Shown: positions 3,533-6,189 of the stretch, in pieces | Layout of the letters: each line of letters begins with the position of its first letter | Position numbering within the stretch: the stretch's first letter is position 1 | DNA from: Oscillospiraceae bacterium | GTDB taxonomy: Bacteria > Bacillota > Clostridia > Oscillospirales > CAG-272 | Direction of reading: 5' to 3' | DNA: 64,000 bases | NCBI GenBank assembly: GCA_015064805.1 | Contig: SVRN01000009.1 | Coordinates: 2,614-66,613, forward strand | The notes under the pieces: model-generated | The model's input: only the letters and a program-made list of their open reading frames with translations | Told to the model about the DNA's origin: nothing | Databases searched by the model: none | Position numbers and translations under genes: made by a program

Positions 3533-6189
<2,657 letters not shown>

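Follow-up and report, generated by a model that had tools for sequence, protein, structure and literature searches.

REP/RAYT systems have been well studied in Proteobacteria, and to our knowledge they have hardly been described in gut Clostridia. The window analyzed here is a stretch of 64 kb, which is the part of the genome that was seen and to which all window counts refer. It raises the question of why a short GTAG hairpin, REP-2, recurs inside several copies of a much larger intergenic repeat, the mosaic, in a region that also encodes a RAYT-like transposase. Either such hairpins are what the mosaic is made of or they came into it from elsewhere. Our analysis points to the second answer: REP-2 is probably a bona fide REP of the same superfamily as REP-1, the REP of the transposase gene, and was brought into slots of an older mosaic as a discrete unit and not as a building block.

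REP-2 is the 25-base sequence GTAGGGGCTGGCGCCTCGACAGCCC, and it occurs in the window as five exact copies with no mismatches, at the five positions and on the strands where the sequence-only reading had placed it. No sixth copy was found in the window at up to three mismatches, with none expected from shuffles.

5810..5834, forward strand: REP-2 in mosaic copy C, recF-gyrB spacer (exact match; ssDNA fold)
9088..9112, forward strand: REP-2 in mosaic copy D, dnaA-dnaN spacer (exact match; missing at the orthologous site of the relative L064)
19365..19389, forward strand: REP-2 in mosaic copy E, mreB-rce1 spacer (exact match)
44733..44757, reverse strand: REP-2 in mosaic copy J (exact match)
58496..58520, reverse strand: REP-2 in mosaic copy L (exact match)

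As single-stranded DNA, REP-2 and REP-1 fold alike, each with a GTAG, a 6-bp stem, a G.A mismatch, 2 bp, and a loop of 3 to 4 nt, and the folding energies are -9.1 kcal/mol for REP-2 and -9.9 kcal/mol for REP-1 (z about -3.6 to -3.8). Between the two, one loop base and two stem pairs are changed (A-T to G-C and C-G to T-A), both pairs with compensation; sequence and fold therefore bear out the earlier description of REP-2 as a hairpin with the GTAG and a near-identical loop of REP-1 on a switched stem. The hallmarks of a REP are present. The GT[AG]G at the 5' foot of the hairpin reads GTAG in 5/5 copies, the ssDNA stem-loop is imperfect, with the G.A mismatch as its internal irregularity and covariation in three pairs, and REP-2 is both multicopy and extragenic, with five intergenic copies in 64 kb. 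The ORFs that overlap REP-2 run in three different frames and encode no conserved protein, and no T-run lies 3' of the hairpin. REP-2 copies in the window are singlets only and do not form REPINs, in which two inverted REPs are joined by a short spacer.

Beyond the window, a scan of one genome per species found the exact 25-mer at 49 loci in about 25 MAGs (gut Clostridia, Oscillospiraceae, Acutalibacteraceae). The flanks of these loci are unrelated to the mosaic of the window, and REP-2 is there an ordinary intergenic REP, often 20-30 nt from an inverted sister hairpin such as GTAGGGGTCGGCGCCTCGACGACCC; heterologous inverted doublets with REP-2 occur, for example, in L006, L037, L041, and L048. 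A variant census over the 49-locus set and the window required GT[AG]G, the loop motif, and the outer G...C, and did not demand stem complementarity. It returned 18 variants with GTAG and the loop GCG(N)CCNCGA. Stem complementarity is complete (6/6) in 15 of them, over eight different stem sequences. A hybrid with the REP-2 stem and the REP-1 loop was found in L018. In a covariation test on the variant alignment, 98.5% of cells were paired compared to 85% in shuffles, and double-sided changes occupied 18 cells compared to 4.1 in shuffles, a value that 0/500 shuffles matched. Sliding the registers of the alignment lowered pairing to 19-57%. When the leader was left free and hairpins were selected on loop motif and stem, GTAG still stood upstream of 78/82 hairpins. 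The sequence-only reading had staked the kinship of these hairpins on a loop likeness better than chance; given the census, the covariation test, and the leader count, that claim stands for REP-1 and REP-2. The sequence data support one REP superfamily, which holds both hairpins and has a conserved GTAG, a conserved loop, and covarying stems. Its constants appear to be the 5' GTAG, a stem of 6 bp with fixed G-C pairs at the top and at both basal positions, a mismatch between two purines, a further two pairs (C-G/G-C), and a pyrimidine loop of 3-4 nt. The three middle stem pairs would be free to vary while pairing is kept, which would explain why the same GTAG and loop recur on compensatory stems.

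The likely partner of such a superfamily is encoded in the window, together with the REP-1 sites and their surroundings.

14759..15364, forward strand: RAYT-like Y1/HUH transposase gene (motifs PNHIHIM and RYIYENP; homologue alignment)
14891..14916, forward strand: REP-1 in the RAYT ORF, encoding VGTGVPDGP
15060..15168, reverse strand: REP-1 array, three 27-nt tandem leaderless units (15060-15142) and a full REP-1 (15143-15168)
15467..15490, reverse strand: fourth GTAG hairpin, GTAG GGCGAG GACCTTCT CTCGCC, inverted and directly 3' of the RAYT gene
60508..61283, no strand assigned: cassette bounded by an inverted REP-1 pair (60508-60533, forward; 61258-61283, reverse)
60606-61016, reverse strand: AT-rich orphan ORF of 136 aa inside the cassette

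Both the HUH motif and the catalytic Tyr motif are present in the ORF at 14759-15364, whose sequence resembles TnpAREP. It matches the NCBIfam model of REP-associated tyrosine transposases (NF047646) at E 3.8e-12, with 46 bits against a curated cut-off of 80 (its homologues reach 53-64 bits), and the E. coli TnpAREP structure (PDB 4er8_A) at E 3.9e-6; a weak match to Pfam Y1_Tnp was obtained in the relative P0253 only. Relatives of this RAYT in Clostridia MAGs number in the thousands. The gene also has a REP family of its own. REP-1 is GTAGGGACCGGCGTCCTCGACGGTCC, with window sites at 14891 (forward, one mismatch), 15143 (reverse), 60508 (forward), and 61258 (reverse), and a REP-1 pair lies within the ORF here and in four other genomes; L081 additionally has an inverted REP-1 pair that is extragenic. 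The array at 15060..15168 encodes (DGPSRTPVT)n...GPSRTPVPT repeats. In all aligned homologues the forward REP-1 encodes VGTGV(P/L)DGP and its reverse complement encodes GPSRTPVPT, so that an in-frame inverted pair brackets the HUH motif in every one of them, and the peptides do not change within the clade. How many tandem units stand on either side differs among homologues, whose lengths run from 166 to 239 aa. Across 508 sampled RAYT relatives, the peptide pairs co-vary as an inverted REP pair requires: VGTG..DGP goes with GPS..PVPT (T/G with P/V) in 109 proteins, VGVG..DDP with GSS..PTPT (V/D with S/T) in 67, and VGDG..DVP with GTS..PSPT (D/V with T/S) in 21. These sequences support a tie between the REP superfamily and a RAYT clade whose members carry such REPs in frame, and the REP-RAYT association proposed from the sequence alone is upheld at the level of the superfamily.

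For REP-2 itself the tie is looser. In one RAYT class (VGDGASTS...RDVEAPSPT), the encoded hairpin combines a GGGACG stem with the 9-nt REP-2 loop, and P0185 and P0253 carry sister REPs with the REP-2 loop. A RAYT flanked by REP-2 or carrying it (VGAGASTA / AVEAPAPT) was found neither in the window RAYT nor among the 508 relatives, where the count was 0, nor in a 50%-identity set of 150 representatives. In metagenome DNA, a pattern in which REP-2 is followed after 95-125 nt by PNHIH codons gave 0 matches, and a designed query based on P0253 and carrying the REP-2-coded peptides recovered no REP-2-encoding RAYT. Traces were found in two proteins. P0269 has VGASTARQ, and P0147 has an additional in-frame VGAGVPDSP (residues 117-125), equivalent to a REP-1-type loop on the REP-2 stem; the own REP pair of P0147 is of the GGGACG type, and the extra peptide hints at cross-mobilization between REP subfamilies. 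In the four other genomes with a REP-1-type RAYT, REP-1 is present and REP-2 is absent within 10 kb on either side. The neighbors of REP-1-type RAYT genes differ from genome to genome (recR, topA, tpiA, and copA among L078-L082 and the window), and the RAYT gene itself seems to move or to be acquired repeatedly.

The second inverted REP-1 pair of the window encloses the cassette at 60508..61283, whose 136-aa ORF had no match in Pfam, NCBIfam, PHROGs, or PADLOC. The cassette also holds a copy of the hairpin/TATAAT region found upstream of the RAYT gene and a copy of the terminator-like hairpin AACCCCGACAG...CTGTCGGGG found downstream of it, and it looks like a RAYT locus in which the gene has been replaced by a passenger. 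The fourth GTAG hairpin, at 15467-15490, has a different loop and was found nowhere else in the sequences examined.

If REP-2 is a REP, its place in the mosaic has to be accounted for. Alignment of the mosaic copies put REP-2 in a discrete indel of 65-69 nt, which is filled in 5/9 aligned copies. In subtype a this module consists of CAGGCAGAG, a hairpin X, REP-2, and GTTTTGGTGG, and it sits immediately 3' of the slot marker CCACCACGCGCGG.

5776..5844, forward strand: 69-nt REP-2 module, subtype a, mosaic C (indel in alignments A1 and A6)
9054..9122, forward strand: 69-nt REP-2 module, subtype a, mosaic D (absent, with precise boundaries, from the orthologous site in L064)
19335..19399, forward strand: 65-nt REP-2 module, subtype b (alignment indel; three-way junction when folded with the slot)
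44723..44790, reverse strand: 68-nt REP-2 module, subtype b (alignment indel)
58486..58553, reverse strand: 68-nt REP-2 module, subtype b (alignment indel)
21045..21076, forward strand: example of an empty slot, CCACCACGCGCGG joined directly to CAGGCGGAGGGAGCGAAAT (slot census)
929, 24760, and 31310 (starts), forward strand, and 33355 (start), reverse strand: other empty window slots (slot census)

Half of the ten slots in the window are filled, with 81-84 nt to the next conserved block, and the other five are empty, with 15 nt. The slots of relatives (L054, L055, and 21 contigs of assembly JAEIGA01) are empty in 10/10 cases and hold REP-2 in 0/10. Over dnaA-copA, the relative L064 has about 96% identity to the window. 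In its dnaA-dnaN mosaic, which is orthologous to that of the window, ...GCCACCACGCGCGG runs directly into CAGACGAAGAAAC..., and exactly the 69 nt of 9054-9122 are lacking, while the adjoining 60 nt are about 95% identical. The module is likewise absent from the recF-gyrB mosaic of L054. Given the filled slots of the window (5/10), the empty slots of its relatives, and the orthologous empty site, REP-2 is a late insertion, and the earlier claim that it ties the large repeats to the Y1 transposase is not supported. The contigs L050-L053, which were retrieved as exact-protein matches, are 100% identical to the window and are for that reason uninformative on polymorphism.

Within the modules, REP-2 is identical at 250/250 positions over ten pairwise comparisons, whereas its 120-nt flanks are 69% and 79% identical. 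Modules C and D are 1 nt apart, at the last base, and their flanks diverge no more than 4 nt away on the left side and, on the right, already at the last base; this identity beside diverged flanks favors precise insertion over ordinary gene conversion, though not decisively. In the relative L077 (3494-3570), a hairpin and another GTAG unit, GTAGGGCTGGGACTTGTCTCCCGCC, come after the slot, which may be open to repeated colonization.

The element that received the module is of another kind. Self-BLAST found about 9.4 kb of repeated sequence in the 64 kb, mostly in 13 intergenic mosaic copies of 0.2-0.77 kb.

20754..21485, forward strand: mosaic copy F, representative full-length copy (self-BLAST, inverted repeats, copy ends, alifold)
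20825-20854 and 21254-21283: inner arms of the terminal inverted repeats of copy F (inverted-repeat search)
746-1286, 2740-3281, 5584-6181, 8831-9525, 18987-19585, 24490-25125, 31041-31619, 33012-33637, 44368-45141, 47430-47637, 58060-58814, and 63186-63698: other mosaic copies (self-BLAST)

A full copy is 0.55-0.75 kb long and non-coding, with terminal inverted repeats of about 130 nt that are built from three hairpins and with about 12 hairpins in all, many of which show compensatory changes between copies. No ORF is conserved across the copies, and a protein-coding mosaic was rejected, given that the overlapping ORFs lie in three frames and share no conserved protein. The folding energy is very low; the strand that carries REP-2 is the more stable one in 8/10 copies, by only about 10 kcal/mol, a bias that is suggestive and not decisive. 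An Rfam search of the whole window and of one mosaic region returned nothing at gathering score and chance-level matches at E < 1, and the mosaic is not a curated RNA family. Promoter and terminator scans of the mosaics did no better than shuffles. The copies separate co-directional housekeeping genes (dnaA, dnaN, recF, gyrB, mreC, mreD, gyrA, mreB), and 10-11 of 12 orientable copies are antisense to the flanking genes. This rule holds on both sides of dnaA, and orientation therefore follows transcription. GC skew is positive to about 31 kb and negative beyond; it too follows the coding strand, which is C-rich, and not dnaA at 10-11 kb. Species whose housekeeping genes are 86-96% related have the mosaic, without REP-2 in these relatives, and in a relative at 74% RecF identity it is nearly absent, with an mreB-rce1 spacer of 39 bp versus 730 bp. 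The terminal inverted repeats and the lack of a conserved ORF are features of MITEs; no target-site duplication was recognized at the mosaic ends, and no partner transposase was seen in the 64-kb window.

Two further hairpins had been counted among the REP-type units of the region.

24633..24661, 19195-19223, and 31183-31211, reverse strand: REP-3 hairpin, GTA GCAACGAAATC TTTG GATTTCGTTGC
20919-20948, reverse strand (leader ATAG), and 44903-44927, forward strand: REP-3 with the variant stem AGCGGATC
10271..10300, forward strand: T2 hairpin, GT-AGGGAAACTTTT-TTCA-AAAAGTTTCCCT (ssDNA fold)

For REP-3, the compensatory stems that had been described were recovered, with four double-sided pair changes at alignment columns 117-120, but the GTAG is not conserved: the leader reads ATAG in window copy F and in L066. 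The outcome for T2 is similar, in that its terminal hairpin exists at 10271-10300 and its GTAG is not conserved, reading TTAG in the relative L064. T2 is a 161-nt repeat at 3364-3524 and 10146-10306, right after the stop codons of gyrB and dnaA, and each copy ends in a AGGGAAAC...GTTTCCCT hairpin. A separate repeat at 55914-56878 consists of three tandem copies of about 290-370 nt, 83-85% identical, inside a 1,144-aa ORF (54572-58006); it lies within coding sequence and is unrelated to the mosaic.

We considered whether the whole mosaic could nevertheless be a BIME-like chain of REP-type units made and moved by the Y1 transposase, as the sequence-only reading had it. The roughly 12 hairpins with compensatory stem changes would suit such a chain, as would the presence of two hairpins with GTAG, REP-2 on one strand and REP-3 on the other, and the different GTAG hairpin in the L077 slot. 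About half of the outer mosaic termini, moreover, are CGTCCGTAGGAG or its complement. At these termini, however, the terminal hairpin has the GTAG on its 3' side, a polarity that does not suit a REP, and the GTAG of REP-3 and T2 is not conserved. A mosaic that is largely a concatenation of REP-type units is not supported by its composition: GTAG hairpins make up less than 10% of a copy and at most 2 of about 12 hairpins (REP-2, which is optional, and REP-3), and the remaining 10 or so have no GTAG and mostly no loop in common with REP-1 or REP-2. REP-2 is moreover a late indel, missing from relatives that have the mosaic. The alternating REPs and short conserved linkers of BIMEs were not found in the mosaic, and its terminal inverted repeats of about 130 nt are unlike anything in BIMEs (PMC3479197, PMC6006769). 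We consider a BIME-like origin of the whole mosaic unlikely.

An old origin of REP-2 as an integral mosaic module, later deleted from half of the copies and from the relatives and kept identical by gene conversion or by selection on a structure such as a three-way junction in RNA or DNA, with no transposition, also carries little probability in our judgment, although several details speak for it. The 3' end of the module, TGGTGGC, pairs with a resident GCCACCA, and slot and module therefore fold into a three-way junction closed by GCCACCA/TGGTGGC. The module opens with CAGGCRGAG, a near copy of the site just after it, as slippage or recombination predicts; this likeness fits recombination between mosaic variants as well as transposition. 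The orientation of the mosaic also tracks that of the genes. Against this, at least ten independent precise deletions in relatives and five in the window would be needed versus few gains, the conversion tracts would have to stop within 1-4 nt of the module on both sides, and about 25 other species have this 25-mer as an ordinary REP with no mosaic flanks. That REP-2 arose as a regulatory hairpin (a terminator, an mRNA stabilizer, or a protein-binding site), with its likeness to REP-1 convergent or irrelevant, appears highly improbable. REP-2 does lie in transcribed spacers between co-directional genes, and E. coli REPs affect mRNA stability and bind host proteins (PMC3479197). The hairpin has no T-run after it, though, and REP-2 is absent from the orthologous spacers of close relatives. 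Convergence fails because the identity with REP-1 spans the GTAG, the mismatch, the inner pairs, and the loop over eight stem types, and the superfamily data refute this model as an account of the origin of REP-2.

The reading we prefer, in which a REP of the REP-1 superfamily entered existing mosaic slots, can be put as a sequence of steps. REP-2 would be an ssDNA hairpin of the kind that Y1/HUH RAYTs recognize and cut, judging by analogy with known systems. The mosaic would have pre-existed as a non-coding element with terminal inverted repeats. The AT-rich hairpin X, REP-2, and GTTTTGGTGG may have come in together as a 65-69-nt unit right after CCACCACGCGCGG; most likely REP-2 entered one slot and then spread as a hairpin-X and REP-2 unit, with a RAYT acting in trans, recently reaching half of the slots. 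In E. coli, TnpAREP depends on the GTAG and the mid-stem mismatch for both binding and cleavage, the GTAG is read base by base with a few base contacts at the stem foot, and randomizing the stem while keeping its shape abolishes binding (PMC3479197). By analogy, the likely recognition features here are the GTAG, the purine mismatch, the inner pairs, and the loop, and the middle stem pairs could then drift by compensation. Because stem randomization abolishes binding in E. coli, the two changed stem pairs could block a REP-1-type enzyme on REP-2; a single E. coli TnpAREP serves the Y, Z1, and Z2 REPs (PMC3333891, PMC3479197, PMC6006769). We infer from the analogy that a RAYT moves REP-2, either the REP-1-type enzyme of the window in trans or a paralogue elsewhere, and that the unit reaches further slots through site-specific insertion of ssDNA and not through recombination among the mosaic copies.

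A more specific version of this preferred reading is doubtful and is offered tentatively. The module would be a minimal non-autonomous Y1-type mobile unit, with hairpin X on the left and, 10 nt before the right end, REP-2 as the subterminal hairpin of that side, inserting site-specifically after CCACCACGCGCGG within an undescribed older family of non-coding elements (0.55-0.75 kb, hairpin-rich, with terminal inverted repeats, about 13% of the region, and oriented against transcription), and it would be driven by a Clostridia RAYT clade with an in-frame REP pair around the HUH motif. If true, this would be a two-tier nesting of ssDNA-type repeats.

Comparison with known systems indicates an ordinary kind of element in an unusual setting. 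E. coli REPs and REP-2 are alike in being imperfect hairpins with GTAG at the 5' foot, in an internal mismatch that is conserved, and in their multiple intergenic copies; E. coli REPs also share with REP-2 the occurrence of several related hairpin subfamilies per genome, the association with a Y1/HUH RAYT, and the inverted doublets that REP-2 forms in other MAGs. With 6 + 2 bp, the REP-2 hairpin is shorter than theirs, which has about 10 bp and a bulge; its host belongs to the gut Clostridia, and in the window each copy is a singlet embedded in a larger repeat. For subclass 2.4, tnpAREP genes that contain in-frame REPs have been described (Quentin et al. 2018, PMC6006769). By comparison, every aligned homologue of the window RAYT also has a REP on the N-terminal side, which places the HUH motif between the two members of an inverted pair, and the peptides stay constant inside a clade and change together from one clade to another. 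BIMEs are REP pairs joined by short linkers (PMC3479197, PMC6006769), and the mosaic resembles them as a modular intergenic repeat with palindromic units and REPs in both orientations (REP-2 and REP-3). BIMEs and REPINs, though, consist of two or more inverted REPs with short linkers over some 70-300 nt, whereas the mosaic spans 550-750 nt, has terminal inverted repeats of about 130 nt and about ten GTAG-less hairpins, and holds REP-2 as an optional late insert. The module recalls the IS200/IS605 derivatives known as PATEs in having two hairpins, in the end of REP-2 10 nt before the right boundary, in its constant position after the same short sequence, and in the lack of a clear target duplication, and it differs from them in its variable left hairpin. 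This likeness leans partly on the geometry of IS608 and serves as a lead only. The mosaic, for its part, is MITE-like in being small, non-coding, multicopy, intergenic, bounded by terminal inverted repeats, and polymorphic between relatives, and unlike MITEs it came with no target-site duplication or autonomous partner that we found, and hairpins make up its terminal inverted repeats.

It was already known that related RAYTs serve REP subfamilies whose stems differ and that RAYT genes can contain in-frame REPs, and the current picture of REP function is unchanged by our results. What is new is the occurrence in Clostridia, a peptide code from which RAYT-REP pairing can be read, and a REP unit that is nested at one specific slot within a larger terminal-inverted-repeat element and has an empty orthologous site. 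The superfamily provides a natural REP series with one loop, at least eight stems, and RAYTs that hold the cognate REP pair in their own coding sequence. Because the pair is encoded there, RAYT-REP specificity can be read from protein sequence, and it can be tested with synthetic hairpins. The filled site and its orthologous empty counterpart in near-identical strains are a rare snapshot of recent movement. The mosaic also has a practical consequence: metagenome assemblies of this lineage break at its repeats, close to once per gene boundary, as is suggested by the recF contigs of close relatives, which are mostly 1.5-3 kb, or about one gene, long.
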